Source: a phage. Taken from it: DNA of 64,000 bases. The notes below the pieces were generated by a model that was not told where the DNA came from, searched no databases, and saw only the letters and a list, made by a program, of their open reading frames with translations. The translations under genes were made by a program, and so were the position numbers. Below are positions 16,937 to 47,190 of the stretch, piece by piece (position 1 is the first letter of the stretch; each line of letters starts with the position of its first letter). The stretch lies in sequence record PZ445554.1; one strand, 5' to 3'.

Positions 16937-17689
16937 ATGGCAAACATTATTCGTTGTAAATTACCAGATGGTGTTCATCGTTTTAAACCATTTACGGTAG
17001 AAGATTATCGAGATTTTTTGTTAGTTCGAAACGATATAGAGCATCGGTCACCACAAGAACAAAAAGAAATAATTACTGATTTAATTGATGATTATTTTGG
17101 AGACTATCCGAAGACTTGGCAACCATTTATATTTTTGCAGGTATTTGTAGGGTCAATAGGTAAAACTAAAGTACCGGTCACATTTGTATGTCCAAAATGT
17201 AAAAAAGAAAAGACAGTTCCATTTGAAATATATCAAAAAGAATTAAAGGAACCTGTTTTTGATGTAGCTAATGTTAAAATTAAATTAAAGTTTCCTTCTG
17301 AGTTTTATGAAAATAAAGCAAAGATGATTACTGAAAATATTCATTCCGTCCAAGTAGATGAAATTTGGTATGATTGGAAGGAAATTAGTGAATCAAGTCA
17401 AATAGAACTTGTTGATGCTATCGAGATAGAAACATTAGAAAAAATTCTCGATGCAATGAATCCTATTAATTTAACATTGCACATGTCGTGTTGTGATAAG
17501 TACATTAAAAAATACACTGATATAGTAGATGTGTTTAAGCTATTAGTTAATCCAGATGAGATATTTACTTTTTATCAAATTAATCACACGCTTGTAAAAA
17601 GTAATTATAGCTTAAATTCAATAATGAAAATGATTCCTGCCGAGCGCGGATTCGTATTAAAACTGATTGAGAAGGATAAACATCAATGA
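16937..17689 (+). CDS. 51: baseplate hub assembly catalyst gp51
   Basis: 250-aa ORF; late promoter upstream; synteny. Confidence 0.88.
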
Positions 17690-23204: not shown

Positions 23205-23495
23205 TTATTTACGGAATGAAATAAAAGCAGCAACTGAAGCAACAGAGGTTTCTTCAATATAAACCTCAATTTTTACCGGAGCTTCTGACTCAAATTTACC
23301 TGTTACTACACCTTGGAAAATACTTTCAGTCTGTTCTGGCTTTGAAAAATTTTCAGAAGGAAAAATTCCGAACTTTTTATCTGTTCCAAAAATTTTGATA
23401 AATTCATCGTAAACTGCTTCATTAAAAGCATTATCAGCAGGAATAACGCCTTCAACTACAAGTTCTTGACCTAAAAAGCGCAAAGAAGATTTCAT
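23205..23495 (-). CDS. hypothetical protein (alt.-3 position)
   Basis: 96-aa ORF; GAGGAA SD; own early promoter. Confidence 0.75.
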   Translation of the reverse strand: MKSSLRFLGQELVVEGVIPADNAFNEAVYDEFIKIFGTDKKFGIFPSENFSKPEQTESIFQGVVTGKFESEAPVKIEVYIEETSVASVAAFISFRK

Positions 23496-23526
23496 TTTGT
23501 GTTCCTCATGTTATGTCAGTAAGATT

Positions 23527-23556
23527 ACTATAACACAACACGAGTGACTTGTAAAC
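23527..23556 (-). promoter_or_regulatory. early promoter (alt.-3)
   Basis: minus strand GTTTACAAGTCACTCGTGTTGTGTTATAGT: -35 TTTACA, 17-bp spacer, TGn-extended -10 TATAGT. Confidence 0.7.
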
Positions 23557-25613
23557 TACATCTTGAACTTTTTAGACATTCCGTTGATGTTAACCAAAGA
23601 AGCTAAGATTTGAGAAACTTCGTTTTCCTCTTCTTTTGATTCTTCTACAAGGAATTGATTAAATCCAGCCATTGGACGAACTTCACCAGTTTCCATCAAA
23701 TGATCGCCATCATATACTGATTCTTCTAATTGCTCAGAAGGAGGAACGATTGTACCTTCGATTAGATACTTGTTATAAGCAGTTTCTTTCATAAAGTAAG
23801 TACTTACTTTATTAATCTTCAGTAAAATTCCACGTGGTAGAATAACTTCAGCTTCTGATGGAAATCCTGATAAATGACCCGGAACGATAACTTTGATTCG
23901 CTCAGCTCCTTTAATTACCATACCCACGCTAGTTTCTGCATCTTCATTAGCATATGTAGAATGACTACCCATATGCATCAAATCTTCTGCATCAACGGAA
24001 CCTTCTCCTTCACCAGAAAATACTGCGCCGGAATCATCTAGAGCCATATAGTTTTTACCATGCTCACCGAAGATATTTGGTTTAAGCGATGTGGATACGA
24101 AGTTCTTGAAATAGAACATTTTGTTTTCAATGTTATGACGCAAAGTTTTAAATGTAACTTCTTGTCCACGGTAAAGTGTAGTTCCTGGAGGAAGAACTGA
24201 ACCTTTAGCGAATGCAGAATCAAGCGTCTCGATGTGCTTAATAGCACGTTCCATATATTCTTCACGAGTAGAATCAGGTTTACCTAAAAGGAACGAGTTC
24301 ATTTCAACATATGAATCTGCGCAATAATCTTCAATTACATCAGATTCAGCCTGAGTCAGTCCTTTTGGAGTTACTTCGGTGCTTGCGTATTCATATGCCT
24401 GAGCGGCAGATTCATTAATCAATTTATAAATGCCATTCATGACAAATTGAATAATAGCTGTCTTTTCATCTGGCGTAGCTTTAGAACCTTTAACTAAATC
24501 ATTAATAATTTTCTTAATAACATCAAAGCTATTAGAAATATTAATGTCAGCAAGATCGCTTAAAATTTTATCAGTTTTATAATCAAAGAATTCTTTATTC
24601 TTTAAATATTCTTGAGAACCTTGATATGTTATATCGCTCTGCAACTTGATAGATGGATCACGTAAACGCGCATGGGCTAATGCAATATGATTTCGGAAGT
24701 TTTCTAGTTCATAATCGCTAGATTTAAAACGAGAAGCACTTCTCATACCACCGATAGCTCCTTTGCTAAAGTTTGAACCAATCTGAATAACGCCAGAGTT
24801 CATCGGACCTTCTGCTTTATATACCGGAACTTTAGATTCAAACTCTTGATATTTCTTAGCAGCGAAGCTATCACCCTGAAGTGAAGCATCGACAGTAGAG
24901 TATTGAGCTTGTGCTGCTAATCGACGACTAATTTTAGTTTTCTGAATAACAGCTTGATCCGTGCGCTTATCATTTTCTAAGGCAATAGAAGCAGCAACAG
25001 CAACAGCTTTAGGAACAGCATTACCTGTTTTAACGTCTACATAAACATCACCAATCTTTGATTCAACTTTTGTGAATAACTCAGTTGAAATAGGAGGTAC
25101 ACCTGGAATGTCTTCTAATTTGGCATTTTTACGGTAAACCATAATATATGCGTACTTTTTATCATAATCCCAGATTTCCTTTAAAAGAACATATCGACCT
25201 GCTCCTTTAGTACGTACTAAACGGTCAGCAATAACTTGCATTTGACGAGCAGCGCCATTTGTTTTACTTTTTAGTACGCGGAATAGGCATGCGTCGATTT
25301 TATACTGTTTCATTGTTTGAAGAGCAGTATCAAAAACAGCATTAATGACGCCAATTGGATTTCCACCCAAGTTTCTAAGCTTGACTAACGATAATTTCTC
25401 GTTGACACCTATCATTACGATATGCATCATTTTATCGCCTGGCTTAACGTTTTTATTCGTATCACCGCCAGAGGTGTATGTACAAAATCTAAATCCAGGA
25501 AGCACGCTTTCTTCACCGGCTTGAATAGCAAAAATTTGTGGTATTTTATGCTTAGGATTTAAGTTAACAACCGGCGCCGAAGCGCCGTCAAATAATTCTG
25601 TAATAAGTTCCAT
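23556..25613 (-). CDS. Alt-like ADP-ribosyltransferase paralog
   Basis: 685-aa ORF, 3 nt downstream of alt; shares N-terminal block (MELITELFD, CTYTSGGDTN, KYAY) and ART core motifs (TLYRGQ, NFVSTSL, EAEVILPRG) with alt; AAGGA SD. Confidence 0.85.
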   Translation of the reverse strand: MELITELFDGASAPVVNLNPKHKIPQIFAIQAGEESVLPGFRFCTYTSGGDTNKNVKPGDKMMHIVMIGVNEKLSLVKLRNLGGNPIGVINAVFDTALQTMKQYKIDACLFRVLKSKTNGAARQMQVIADRLVRTKGAGRYVLLKEIWDYDKKYAYIMVYRKNAKLEDIPGVPPISTELFTKVESKIGDVYVDVKTGNAVPKAVAVAASIALENDKRTDQAVIQKTKISRRLAAQAQYSTVDASLQGDSFAAKKYQEFESKVPVYKAEGPMNSGVIQIGSNFSKGAIGGMRSASRFKSSDYELENFRNHIALAHARLRDPSIKLQSDITYQGSQEYLKNKEFFDYKTDKILSDLADINISNSFDVIKKIINDLVKGSKATPDEKTAIIQFVMNGIYKLINESAAQAYEYASTEVTPKGLTQAESDVIEDYCADSYVEMNSFLLGKPDSTREEYMERAIKHIETLDSAFAKGSVLPPGTTLYRGQEVTFKTLRHNIENKMFYFKNFVSTSLKPNIFGEHGKNYMALDDSGAVFSGEGEGSVDAEDLMHMGSHSTYANEDAETSVGMVIKGAERIKVIVPGHLSGFPSEAEVILPRGILLKINKVSTYFMKETAYNKYLIEGTIVPPSEQLEESVYDGDHLMETGEVRPMAGFNQFLVEESKEEENEVSQILASLVNINGMSKKFKM

Positions 25614-25616
25614 GAT

Positions 25617-27674
25617 TTATCCTTGAACGAACTTGTAAGGCATGTTTGCAATATCTATGCAAGACGCAATAATTCCAAGAGATGATTCTACTTTCTGTTT
25701 AACATTTGATGAAACAAATGATGCAAAGTCAACTCTGTCTTCTATTTCAATATCACCTGTCATTGTAACCAATTCACCAGTTTCCATTAAATGGTCACCG
25801 TCATAAATTACCGATTCGGTGAGTTCTTCTGTGGTCATAACTTCAGCTTGAATAAGCTTGTTGTTAGTTTTAACTGTTCCATCATTGTAAGATGCATCGG
25901 TTATTTTATTAACTTTGACCATTAATCCACGTGGCAAAATGACTTCCATTTCATTTGAAGGCGCTAAACTTCCACCGGGTAAAACAACATTGACCTTATC
26001 AGCCCCAGTAATAACCCATCCAATTCCAACTAAATTATCGCTAGAATTTACTAGTCCTTCATCAGTTTTATCAATAGAAACGCTTAGACGCTTTTCGTCT
26101 GGTAAAACACCTATAGATGAATCAGTCATCCAAGTACCAAAAATATTTGGATATAATGATGTTGACACAAAGTTTCTAAAATAAAAAACTCGATTTTTTA
26201 CCATTGCTTCGTATATTGAAGGTAACATTCGTTGTGAACGATACAAAGTAATACCTTTTGGTAATCGTTCACCATTTTTAAAGGCTGAATCTAAATTATC
26301 AATAGCTTTTTCTATGTCAGATGCTGTCAAAATACTTGTACGCTCATCTGGATTATATAATCCCAAAAGAGCATTATTTATGTCTACATATCCTGAACCT
26401 ACGTATTCACGAATTCCGCGTTTTTGTGCTGGTGTGTATTTAGATGAATCTTTATTTTCGACTATAGGATGTAATGACCATCCAGCGGTAAGAGCATATC
26501 CACGTAATTCTCTTCGAATAATCTTTGTTTTTATTGCATTCCAAGAATTTTGTACTAACTCATTTGCAGCATCTTGGTTTAAATGCGAATGTTTGTTAAT
26601 ATTTCTTTCAAACCAAGCACCTTTATATTTTTCTAAAGTATCATCGACGATAGAAGCAATAGTTTCTAAGGTTTTTATTGAAGTAATAGATTCTTTTCGT
26701 AATTTTTCTAAAGCTTTATTTTTTATTTCTGCATTAATAATGAATTCTTTATCTTCAGGAATTATAGAAGCTTCTCTGAATGCCATCCCAGCTGTAACAC
26801 TGCTAAGAGCATTCTCTAGTGCAAATCCTGAAGTAGAAATTACCGTTAATTCATTAGAATCAGAAATTAAAGGAGCGTCCGCTGGTTTATTTAATTCTGC
26901 CGCTGAAGCCTCAAATTTTTGAAACATCGGTGTTTCAAATCTAGAAGATTCCAATGATTGACTTTGCGCAATTGCTCTACGTGAAATTTTAACTTTAACG
27001 ATTACAGCTTGATCAGAACGTTTATCATTTTCTTGCGCAATAGATGCTGCAATTGCCTCATTTTTAGTTACTTGGGCTCCAGTATCTTTATTGATATAAA
27101 CATCACCGACCTTCGATTCAACTTTAGTAAAGAGCTCAGTACTAATTTCCGGAACTCCCGGAATGTCTTCTAGTGATACATTTTTGCGATGTATAAGAAT
27201 ATATGCATACTTTTTATCGTAATCCCATAGTTCCTTAAGAAGGACGTATCTGCCACCTGAACGACTACGGATAAGTCTATCAGCAATAACTTGAATTTGT
27301 CGAGCTTGACCAGCGGTTTTAGACTTAAGAATACGAAGCATACAGGCATCAATTTTATACTGACGCATTGTTTGCATCGCAACAGTAAAAACTGAATTGA
27401 TATAATTAATTGGGCTTGGACCAAGACCTTTTAATTTAGCAATTGAACCTTTAGCAGTTAATGTAAAAGGAACAATATGCATCATTTTATCGCCCATCTT
27501 TAAATCACGATTAGTATCACCTCCAGATGTATAGGTACATAAACGAAAGCCTGGTTGTTCAATTGCATCATCAACATGAACTGAAAAAATTTGTGGTATT
27601 TTCTTCTTTGGATTTAAGTTTGTAATCGGAAGAGTAGTATCTTCGTCAAATAATTCTGTAATGAGTTCCATCAT
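25617..27674 (-). CDS. alt: Alt ADP-ribosyltransferase (head-packaged)
   Basis: 685-aa ORF with R / S-T-S / E-x-E ART motifs (TLYRSQ, NFVSTSL, EMEVILPRG); minus-strand late promoter upstream; true start may be the second ATG (27671). Confidence 0.92.
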   Translation of the reverse strand: MMELITELFDEDTTLPITNLNPKKKIPQIFSVHVDDAIEQPGFRLCTYTSGGDTNRDLKMGDKMMHIVPFTLTAKGSIAKLKGLGPSPINYINSVFTVAMQTMRQYKIDACMLRILKSKTAGQARQIQVIADRLIRSRSGGRYVLLKELWDYDKKYAYILIHRKNVSLEDIPGVPEISTELFTKVESKVGDVYINKDTGAQVTKNEAIAASIAQENDKRSDQAVIVKVKISRRAIAQSQSLESSRFETPMFQKFEASAAELNKPADAPLISDSNELTVISTSGFALENALSSVTAGMAFREASIIPEDKEFIINAEIKNKALEKLRKESITSIKTLETIASIVDDTLEKYKGAWFERNINKHSHLNQDAANELVQNSWNAIKTKIIRRELRGYALTAGWSLHPIVENKDSSKYTPAQKRGIREYVGSGYVDINNALLGLYNPDERTSILTASDIEKAIDNLDSAFKNGERLPKGITLYRSQRMLPSIYEAMVKNRVFYFRNFVSTSLYPNIFGTWMTDSSIGVLPDEKRLSVSIDKTDEGLVNSSDNLVGIGWVITGADKVNVVLPGGSLAPSNEMEVILPRGLMVKVNKITDASYNDGTVKTNNKLIQAEVMTTEELTESVIYDGDHLMETGELVTMTGDIEIEDRVDFASFVSSNVKQKVESSLGIIASCIDIANMPYKFVQG

Positions 27675-32460: not shown

Positions 32461-32490
32461 ATACTATCACAAAGGAACCGTACTGTAAAC
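32461..32490 (-). promoter_or_regulatory. early promoter (30.8)
   Basis: minus strand GTTTACAGTACGGTTCCTTTGTGATAGTAT: -35 TTTACA, 17 bp, TGn + TAGTAT. Confidence 0.6.
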
Positions 32491-32504: not shown

Positions 32505-32539
32505 TTTGGAAAATAAAAAAGGACTCCCGAAGGAGTCCT
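32505..32539 (-). terminator. rho-independent terminator downstream of 30.9
   Basis: AGGACUCC-CGAA-GGAGUCCU hairpin followed on minus strand by UUUUUUAUUUU. Confidence 0.8.
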
Positions 32540-32543
32540 CAAC

Positions 32544-32762
32544 TTATGCTTTCTGCTTACCAAAACGAGAAGCATCATCTCGAAGAACCGCACGTGCTCG
32601 ACGCATGATCTTCTCAACAGTTTGATTAATACGAGAGTTCGACCCACGCTTGTAGCCAGCGCGTTTAGAATCACCAACTTTCTTTTCAACTGCTTTCTTT
32701 GCTTTAGCTTGTTTTGCCATTATAAATTCTCTTTTAAATGAAAATGCAGGACTTATTGGCAT
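32544..32762 (-). CDS. hypothetical basic protein (30.9 position)
   Basis: 72-aa ORF (alternative ATG at 32720); rho-independent terminator downstream. Confidence 0.65.
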   Translation of the reverse strand: MPISPAFSFKREFIMAKQAKAKKAVEKKVGDSKRAGYKRGSNSRINQTVEKIMRRARAVLRDDASRFGKQKA

Positions 32763-33936: not shown

Positions 33937-34176
33937 TTATTTACCTATCACAGTTTTAATATGAGTTGTTCCACGTTCTTTAAGGGTGGAAAGTAATTTT
34001 TGGCATTTTTCTAAATCAGATTTCCAACTATATGGTCTATCAATACTAGTCCAATCAGTTTTATAATACTGTTTCCATTTAGAGAAAAAATATTTCTTAT
34101 ACTCTACAGCAAATGAGATGTTCTCATTAGAATAAGAACTAATTGCTGTGAGCTTTACCAAACGAAATTTCATCAT
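33937..34176 (-). CDS. hypothetical protein (31.2 position)
   Basis: 79-aa ORF. Confidence 0.65.
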   Translation of the reverse strand: MMKFRLVKLTAISSYSNENISFAVEYKKYFFSKWKQYYKTDWTSIDRPYSWKSDLEKCQKLLSTLKERGTTHIKTVIGK

Positions 34177-37990: not shown

Positions 37991-38340
37991 TTAGAAAGGT
38001 CCTGGATGTCTTCTGCGAACTTGTTGAAGGAGTTGTTGATTTGTTTTTCAACCAATCCTGGCTTATGAGCCACCACATCCGCCTTCTTTGCGTCTTTGCG
38101 CAGTTTTTCATTTTCACGCTCAATAGCAGCAATTGCCTCACGATTTTTATTATTCATCGCATCAATATAATTATACTGAATTCGCAAATTATTTAATGCT
38201 AAGGCGTTTTCATTGGCTGTTTTTGTAATTTCAGTAACTGATGTTTCTAATCTTTCTACCTTATTTTTTAAAATAATAGATGTTCCGCCAAATGCTATTA
38301 CAAGTAATAGCAATCCAGCTGTAAAATTACTTACATGCAT
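37987..38340 (-). CDS. pseT.3: i-spanin (inner-membrane, Rz equivalent)
   Basis: 117-aa ORF with N-terminal transmembrane helix followed by coiled-coil-like region; overlaps o-spanin start. Confidence 0.75.
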   Translation of the reverse strand: MHVSNFTAGLLLLVIAFGGTSIILKNKVERLETSVTEITKTANENALALNNLRIQYNYIDAMNNKNREAIAAIERENEKLRKDAKKADVVAHKPGLVEKQINNSFNKFAEDIQDLSK

Positions 38341-38834
38341 AAAGTTTTAATAACCTCTATAATATCGTCTTGAGAAAGACCGTTAATTAAAATATGATGT
38401 TCAGCTGGAGATTTAGAAATTTTAAAGCATGCCTCAACATCTTCTGCCATATCCGATGCACTACGATTTGGATTACTAATACCAAGGCGGTGTTTTCCCG
38501 TCAAAGGATTAACGATGATATAGCATTTGCAGCTATTGATATGAACATTGGGTTGAGTCTGATTAATGAACACTTCACAATCATACTTAGCGAGTTGATT
38601 TTCTAAAAAGACTTTCATCTCTTCAACCGCATCAGGAAGCATATCACGGGCTTGCTCAAGACGACGATTTCGATATTCTTTAATGGTCGTTTTCCGCTTG
38701 ACTTGCTTAGCTAAATCTTTCTTAAGATCAGTGATATATCCAACTCGACGATTTCCTTTGAATACAGAAATCCCATCTGTAGTATCACCGTATGCTTCAA
38801 CGACCATTTCAGTAGTAATAAGCTGCAAATCCAT
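38331..38834 (-). CDS. alc: Alc, inhibitor of host transcription on cytosine DNA
   Basis: 167 aa from second ATG (GAGGA SD); T4 position between pseT cluster and rnlA. Confidence 0.88.
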   Translation of the reverse strand: MDLQLITTEMVVEAYGDTTDGISVFKGNRRVGYITDLKKDLAKQVKRKTTIKEYRNRRLEQARDMLPDAVEEMKVFLENQLAKYDCEVFINQTQPNVHINSCKCYIIVNPLTGKHRLGISNPNRSASDMAEDVEACFKISKSPAEHHILINGLSQDDIIEVIKTLCM

Positions 38835-38865
38835 CATAAAGTCCTCATGTTATGTCAGTAAGACT

Positions 38866-38895
38866 ACTATAACACAACACGAGGGACTTGTAAAC
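38866..38895 (-). promoter_or_regulatory. early promoter (alc)
   Basis: minus strand GTTTACAAGTCCCTCGTGTTGTGTTATAGT, near-identical to the alt.-3 promoter. Confidence 0.7.
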
Positions 38896-38898
38896 AGC

Positions 38899-40486
<1,588 letters not shown>

Positions 40487-47160: not shown

Positions 47161-47190
47161 ATAGTATCACACTACTACCCTGTTGTAAAC
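47161..47190 (-). promoter_or_regulatory. early promoter (micropeptide ORF / frd.3)
   Basis: minus strand GTTTACAACAGGGTAGTAGTGTGATACTAT: 17 bp, TGn + TACTAT. Confidence 0.55.

Follow-up and report, generated by a model that had tools for sequence, protein, structure and literature searches.

PeSL (promoter-early stem-loop) cassettes of T4-type phages, as described by Arbiol et al. 2010 (PMC2839356) and Comeau et al. 2014 (PMC4122927), are composed of an upstream stop codon, AT-rich DNA, a -35 and a -10 element, a stem-loop that often overlaps the -10 element, a Shine-Dalgarno (SD) sequence and an ATG. In both studies, termination or attenuation of transcription is the function ascribed to the stem-loop, while the cassette as a whole is regarded as a module for recombination, and it has been proposed that PeSLs move or recombine between genes as units. 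A related arrangement is represented by the T4 genes e, soc, 49 and I-TevI, in which a helix masks the SD and only the transcript from a promoter within that helix can be translated (Uzan & Miller 2010, PMC3014915); alc and alt.-3 are absent from the list of gated genes in that review. The early promoters of T4, i.e., the Pe class (Hinton 2010, PMC2988021), represent the third point of comparison for the locus described here.

The analyzed stretch of phage DNA (64,000 nucleotides, hereafter the window) is that of a Tequatrovirus that is near to, yet distinct from, T4, and the genes surrounding the cassettes are located on the minus strand. An initial annotation of this stretch had reported a 54-bp promoter and leader cassette, duplicated with two mismatches upstream of alt.-3 (copy A) and alc (copy B), and its coordinates proved to be exact. 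Copy A, which reads GTTTACAAGTCACTCGTGTTGTGTTATAGTAATCTTACTGACATAACATGAGGA on the minus strand (23556 to 23503), is identical to copy B, also on the minus strand, at 52 of 54 positions, the mismatches (minus-strand reading) being located at cassette position 12 (A in copy A, C in copy B) and position 32 (A and G, respectively), while similarity in the flanks ends abruptly on both sides. No match to the cassette with three or fewer mismatches was found in 100 dinucleotide shuffles of the window, and Rfam searches of both copies returned nothing, even at E≤1. The repeats are direct, with a spacing of 15,339 bp. Since copy A overlaps the stop codon of the distal alt gene by one base, copy B starts 3 nt past the rnlA stop codon and the ATG follows 7 nt past the cassette end in both cases, each copy represents essentially the whole intergenic region.

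The genes downstream, of which alt.-3 carries a name that agrees with the T4 annotation, are unrelated, as had been claimed: Alt.-3 and Alc belong to different Pfam families (DUF5498 and PF17527, respectively), and BLASTP returned no alignment between them. Duplication of a gene together with its promoter was therefore rejected.

A promoter scan identified TTTACA-17-TATAGT with a TG ahead of the -10 hexamer in both copies, matching the E. coli consensus at 10 of 12 positions, and the GAGGA SD sequence makes up the final 5 nt of the repeat, 7 nt ahead of the alt.-3 ATG (23495) and the alc ATG (38834). Each copy thus appears to span an early promoter, a leader and an SD sequence, in agreement with the initial annotation. 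From the usual sigma-70 geometry, transcription would start near cassette position 37; a literature search for a genome-wide map of T4 transcription start sites did not return one. The positions of these features, together with the corresponding regions in other phages, are collected in Table 1.

Table 1. Position of the two cassette copies, their elements and the adjacent genes in the window, and of the alc upstream regions in related phages
Feature	Position	Strand	Remarks
Copy A	23503..23556	-	spans the alt/alt.-3 gap; its first G completes the alt stop codon TAG (23556-23558)
-35 TTTACA, copy A	23550..23555	-	preceded by G, giving GTTTACA
Extended -10 (TGT + TATAGT), copy A	23527..23535	-	in the apical part of the predicted hairpin
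Putative transcription start, copy A	23519..23521	-	sigma-70 geometry, ~7 nt past the -10; falls within the hairpin's 3' half
Shine-Dalgarno GAGGA of alt.-3	23503..23507	-	paired with the spacer in the predicted hairpin
Predicted hairpin, copy A	23501..23548	-	dG -21.2 kcal/mol, z -4.1
alt.-3	23205..23495	-	96 aa, DUF5498; downstream of copy A
Copy B	38842..38895	-	spans the rnlA (gene 63)/alc gap; rnlA TAA at 38899-38901
-35 TTTACA, copy B	38889..38894	-	promoter scan
Extended -10 (TGT + TATAGT), copy B	38866..38874	-	promoter scan; apical in the predicted hairpin
Putative transcription start, copy B	38858..38860	-	sigma-70 geometry
Shine-Dalgarno GAGGA of alc	38842..38846	-	paired with spacer UCC(C)UC in the predicted hairpin
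Predicted hairpin, copy B	38839..38889	-	5' arm AAGUCC.CUCGUGUUGUGUU..AGUA, loop GUCU, 3' arm UACUGACAUAACAUGAGGACUU
alc	38331..38834	-	167 aa, PF17527 (ALC); downstream of copy B
IME08 (Dhakavirus)	rnlA-alc gap		complementary arms UCUCCUCAU/AUGAGGAGA
Pet-CM3-4 (Karamvirus)	rnlA-alc gap		complementary arms UCUCCAUUUGGUU/AACCAAAUGGAGA
R3_1 (Marfavirus)	rnlA-alc gap		complementary arms CCUCGUUUGUU/AACAAACGAGG
Vettismorki (Winklervirus)	rnlA-alc gap		spacer complementary to SD region
Cronus (Roskildevirus)	rnlA-alc gap		spacer complementary to SD region
CF-SP2 (Gelderlandvirus)	rnlA-alc gap		spacer complementary to SD region
KEN25_2 and UTI-K1 (both Jiaodavirus)	rnlA-alc gap		spacer complementary to SD region

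The likeness of the two copies exceeds that expected of two members of one promoter family. When the nine GTTTAC-type early promoters of the window, all on one strand, were compared across the 54 positions of the cassette (36 pairs), copies A and B agreed at 52 of 54 positions and the other 35 pairs at a mean of 24.4 ± 5.5, the runner-up among them agreeing at 34. Outside the hexamers, the two copies agree at 36 of 38 positions and the other promoter pairs at 20 at most. The claim that the seven other early promoters share the motif and not the flanks thus holds in that this pair is an outlier, although the copies are less singular than it implied, as six or seven of the nine promoters possess hairpins that enclose the -10 box.

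RNA folding of copy B predicts a hairpin of 22 bp (dG -24.4 kcal/mol, z -5.3), and none of 200 shuffled sequences was as stable. Positions 7-12 and 14-25, which represent the promoter spacer, together with positions 28-31 are predicted to pair with positions 36-57, which encompass the leader, GAGGA and CUU; the spacer accounts for the pairing of all five SD bases, while the -10 hexamer is located near the tip. Three pairs of the helix are G-U, and the fold of the sense strand exceeds that of the antisense strand in stability by 9 kcal/mol. The copy A hairpin uses, in its basal register, the alt.-3-specific sequence GAGGAAC, and the C12>A change in the window disrupts one basal pair; alt.-3 copies of relatives that carry U11 form hairpins of up to -27.9 kcal/mol. 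According to this model, the 54 bp correspond almost exactly to one hairpin, with the promoter spacer as the 5' arm and the leader plus SD as the 3' arm. The initial annotation had set a conserved structured RNA against its reading of the repeat; the hairpin turned out instead to be part of the answer, as its constraint would explain, beyond recent copying, why spacer and leader are conserved beside the hexamers. As a transcript from the cassette's own promoter would start within the 3' half of the hairpin, it would lack the anti-SD arm, and the helix could form only in RNA arriving from upstream. The leader alone, folded from the putative start, gave no significant structure (z -0.7 for copy B and +0.9 for copy A).

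Within Tequatrovirus, the cassette is widespread and both of its copies are present in T4. A blastn search with the 54-mer returned at least 999 places in at least 500 phage records, and the matches listed, with two per genome, all belong to T4-like coliphages and their Shigella, Yersinia, Salmonella and Citrobacter relatives. Among 29 cassette copies from approximately 15 Tequatrovirus genomes or contigs, only some of which contribute both copies, the consensus is the same 54-mer at both loci. Copy B matches this consensus at 54 of 54 positions, so that both mismatches in the window represent derived changes in copy A, and the two copies of some genomes are identical throughout. Of ten variant types, four retain pairing (C-G to U-G, or G-U to A-U), three are located at unpaired positions and three break a pair. 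One pair-breaking change, G50>A, is offset by C15>U in the same copy, forming a compensatory pair in that single copy, while C11>U, present in alt.-3 copies, turns GUCCCUC into GUUCCUC, a perfect match to the alt.-3-specific GAGGAAC. Furthermore, G-U pairs render the sense strand of the Tequatrovirus copies 6-10 kcal/mol more stable than the antisense strand. A 16-mer scan for further cassette copies yielded mainly chance matches in unrelated phages.

Pairing between spacer and SD upstream of alc was observed in at least eight genera, with sequences that differ between genera and are complementary within each genome. Outside Tequatrovirus, the hairpin (z -2.6 to -6.1) is found in Dhaka-, Karam-, Marfa-, Winkler-, Roskilde-, Gelderland- and Jiaodavirus, the orthologous helices being 16-21 bp long with bulges. 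As loop lengths and SD type vary, the 3' arms of the orthologous cassettes at alc were not brought into register by MAFFT for column-wise covariation, and a permutation test on duplex energies was used instead, in which each 17-nt spacer was combined with each 24-nt leader of nine genomes. Cognate duplexes averaged -19.6 kcal/mol versus -11.3 kcal/mol for non-cognate ones, a cognate mean reached by none of 100,000 permutations, and for seven genomes the cognate duplex ranked first across its row as well as down its column, while for the remaining two it did so in one of these. Helices outside Tequatrovirus and Jiaodavirus lack G-U pairs, so that the comparison of sense and antisense strands is uninformative there. 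The combination of covariation and G-U pattern fits a structure in the sense RNA, rather than a protein operator or chance. The alc promoters of RB69, TG1 and PM2 lack an SD-masking helix, while TG1 and Acinetobacter phage Berthold exhibit a hairpin around the -10 box only; the predicted gate therefore appears dispensable in some lineages. In a separate observation, phage DK-13 (Gaprivervirus, L011) carries an extra 88-aa ORF between rnlA and alc (17177-17495), preceded by the GC-rich hairpin AAAAAGGGGTGTACAAGCCCCTTCTTT without a GTTTAC promoter, and alc would accordingly have lost its own cassette in this phage.

When compared with the described systems, the cassette most closely resembles the PeSLs, with which it shares the flanking stop codon and ATG, a sigma-70-like early promoter (the T4/PST consensus being TTTACW-N17-TAYWAT, from which TATAGT deviates by one base), a stable predicted stem-loop that encloses the -10 box in both copies and an SD at the 3' end. 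It differs in that its stem is of unusual length and the SD itself forms the 3' arm, a role not discussed in PMC2839356 or PMC4122927, and in that its copies, which lie at a distance of 15.3 kb with essential genes in the interval, are located in a region that is conserved for the most part, rather than flanking ORFans in a hyperplastic region. With e, soc, 49 and I-TevI it has in common a promoter inside the structure, an SD predicted to be masked in the long transcript and a geometry that, from the putative start, fits an own transcript without the 5' arm. By analogy the cassette may work like this family, of which it is strictly no member: the internal promoter of those genes is late (TATAAATA), whereas that of the cassette is an early sigma-70 promoter, so that the logic of the gate would be inverted to early-only. 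The T4 Pe class shares the GTTTAC-type -35, the 17-bp spacer, the TGn extended -10, A-rich upstream DNA and early downstream genes (alt.-3 and alc, as judged from the T4 orthologues), yet membership of this class accounts for the hexamers and neither for the 36 of 38 identities outside them nor for the complementarity of spacer and leader. Given that most early promoters of the window possess hairpins enclosing the -10 box, the kind of cassette is already known; what is particular to this one is the length of the helix, the masking of the SD that is conserved at alc, and the probable transfer of the cassette as a unit.

In T4, alt.-3 and alc are classed as early RNAs and early proteins, while alt, alt.-1 and alt.-2, located just upstream of alt.-3, are classed as middle RNAs, and RnlA and Alt accumulate as late proteins (PMC9697503 supplement). 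The early class of alt.-3 beside the middle class of its upstream neighbours supports, from the T4 orthologues, an active early promoter at the alt.-3 site. T4 possesses middle promoters upstream of both genes (PI-TevIII, PnrdB and PnrdA above alc; P30 and P30.2 above alt.-3; PMC2988021), which are expected to give read-through RNA across the cassettes, and the timing classes fit early-only translation of alc and alt.-3.

The explanation that best accounts for these observations as a whole, and which we regard as reasonably probable, is that the cassette is a compact PeSL-type early control module, ancestral at alc and copied to alt.-3, which combines a strong sigma-70 promoter with a spacer that doubles as an anti-SD arm. 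In read-through RNA both arms would be present and fold into a hairpin of ~22 bp that buries GAGGA, while RNA from the cassette's own promoter would start in the 3' half, lack the anti-SD arm and leave the ribosome-binding site free. Alc and Alt.-3 would thus be translated essentially only while the early promoter fires, and middle or late read-through messages would be silent for both genes. The module would have been copied, from the -35 to the SD, over the alt.-3 promoter in the ancestor of Tequatrovirus, probably by short-patch recombination or gene conversion, and promoter and hairpin constraints would since have jointly kept the copies near-identical. The more specific statement that alc, which encodes a host shutoff function, carries a previously undescribed early-only gate, conserved in at least eight genera and moved intact to alt.-3 in that ancestor, is put forward tentatively, as its chances are somewhat short of even. 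The feature itself is real and conserved and its structural explanation is well supported, while the regulatory role predicted from the folding model is plausible.

The proposed direction of transfer is based on the distribution of the hairpin, which upstream of alt.-3 was found in Tequatrovirus only among the genera compared. In five other genera the alt.-3 promoters are of another type: those of RB69, IME08, DK-13 and Pet-CM3-4 possess the spacer CACA(A/T)GGA(A/T)GTG, which is shared by the corresponding, MotA-box-like region of TG1. No hairpin was predicted upstream of alt.-3 in RB69, IME08, Pet-CM3-4 and TG1 (fold z -1.8 to +0.4), DK-13 having been assessed by eye only, and the spacer:leader duplexes of the same four phages reached -5 to -11.5 kcal/mol versus -19.2 kcal/mol in Tequatrovirus. 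As the hairpin is present at alc in many genera and at alt.-3 in Tequatrovirus alone, these data point to transfer from alc to alt.-3, the alc cassette probably having replaced the original alt.-3 promoter in a Tequatrovirus ancestor. Raw identity did not single out a donor locus, since the identity of the T4 cassette to promoters of other genera is 63-80% for the alc type and the alt.-3 type alike, and the direction consequently rests on one character, i.e., the presence or absence of the hairpin. The cassette transfer suggested in the initial annotation is favoured by this distribution, as a transfer of the whole cassette, although the hairpin constraint offers a further explanation for the conservation of the repeat. 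As a separate observation, the alt.-3 homologue of TG1 (Tegunavirus, L012) carries, upstream of 33422, the MotA-box-like TGCTTTAA and no GTTTAC, which suggests that an early promoter has been exchanged for a middle one.

The initial annotation had further considered the repeat capable of mediating deletion or inversion, neither of which was borne out. Inversion is impossible between direct repeats, and the 15.3-kb interval contains, among others, gene 30 (DNA ligase), gene 31, cd and pseT, of which genes 30 and 31 are essential, so that deletion between the copies would be lethal. A 15-kb tandem duplication is judged to be above the headful packaging limit. Non-crossover conversion would therefore be the only viable outcome, in agreement with the observations: no rearrangement joining the two copies was seen, and the derived variants G16>A, T27>C and C15>T occur at both loci, twice inside one genome, which is compatible with occasional gene conversion between the loci. 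These shared variants are mostly structure-neutral transitions, and parallel change is thus also possible. Scans of IMG/VR and JGI metagenomes, performed to sample such conversion, yielded only a handful of T4-like contigs.

Several other explanations of the hairpin were weighed against the early-only gate. A PeSL stem-loop of RB49 lowered lacZ expression to the same extent as the rrnB T1 terminator (PMC2839356), and the hairpin could likewise serve chiefly to terminate or attenuate upstream transcription and thereby shield alc and alt.-3 from it, the SD pairing being incidental. The stem is strong and CUUUAU is located directly past the alc copy, but a U-tract is absent and a scan of both loci returned no terminator-like site, no intrinsic terminator being predicted at either copy, and the sequence past the alt.-3 copy and most orthologues is A-rich. 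Moreover, the 3' arm ends on the SD in all eight genera, which a terminator would not need, and this explanation is considered unlikely. Translational coupling, whereby ribosomes stopping at the alt or rnlA stop codon would melt the anti-SD arm and the output of Alc and Alt.-3 would follow upstream translation, is a little less likely again. Helices that mask an SD until ribosomes from the preceding gene open them are a classical means of coupling. In every genus, GTTTACA directly adjoins or overlaps the stop codon, whose position 8-12 nt ahead of the 5' arm means that terminating ribosomes might open the helix, resulting in coupling rather than silencing. However, RnlA and Alt of T4 are late proteins while Alc and Alt.-3 are early, and a terminating ribosome would be expected to reach only the basal 0-4 bp of the 22-bp helix.

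It is improbable that the repeat has no special function and reflects a recent neutral duplication or repeated gene conversion, with a palindrome that is due to chance or acts at the DNA level as a cruciform or protein operator. The variants common to both loci would agree with such an origin, and T4 recombines on ~50 bp of homology (Singer 1982, as cited in PMC2839356); those variants may nevertheless have arisen in parallel, while the arms remain complementary across genera as their sequences change, which speaks against both an operator and chance, and the G-U pairs and compensatory changes in Tequatrovirus favour a structure in the sense RNA. More improbable still is that the ~22-bp helix is a processing site at which RNase III, or another nuclease, would cut alc or alt.-3 off from the upstream message. 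Intergenic RNase III hairpins are in use in phage T7, and the length of the helix approaches two turns; on the other hand, the orthologous helices are only 16-21 bp long with bulges, and evidence for such a site in T4 was not found in PMC3014915.

The early-only gate offers a reason for the base-for-base conservation of spacer and leader in a phage that has been studied very intensively, as the 54 bp would constitute promoter, anti-SD arm and ribosome-binding site at once. If correct, it would explain why synthesis of Alc and Alt.-3 is confined to the first minutes despite middle-mode transcripts that cross both genes, and it would add an early-promoter version to the textbook gates based on late promoters. 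The cassette would furthermore represent a natural example of a regulatory element that moves between genes as a unit and, for engineering, a ready 54-bp part that ties expression to the promoter from which the message originated.

A number of minor observations concern neighbouring promoters and genes. The minus-strand promoters at 47190, 35902, 32490, 32098 and 47922 possess hairpins around the -10 box (z -2.0 to -3.8), and the 3' arm of that at 32490 takes in the SD AAGGAG, making this a second possible promoter with an anti-SD sequence in its spacer. Just upstream of the latter (32505-32588, minus strand), a sub-threshold Rfam match to Atu_C8 (31 bits versus a gathering threshold of 50, E 0.007) is probably due to chance. 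The window also contains two tandem alt paralogues of 685 aa each (23556-25613 and 25617-27674, minus strand), while T4 possesses alt plus the remnants alt.-1 and alt.-2 (L002 1066-1451). As the last ~20 nt of these remnants are identical to the 3' end of the distal alt of the window, they look like an internally deleted second copy of alt. Lastly, a further duplicated promoter cassette was noted in IME08 (L010, 9032 and 9741), in which a 32-nt identical block, CTTTAAACATGATACTATAGACCTATCAACTA, is located upstream of two genes of the frd region, and the same type of promoter cassette is present in RB69 (L003) at 34000.
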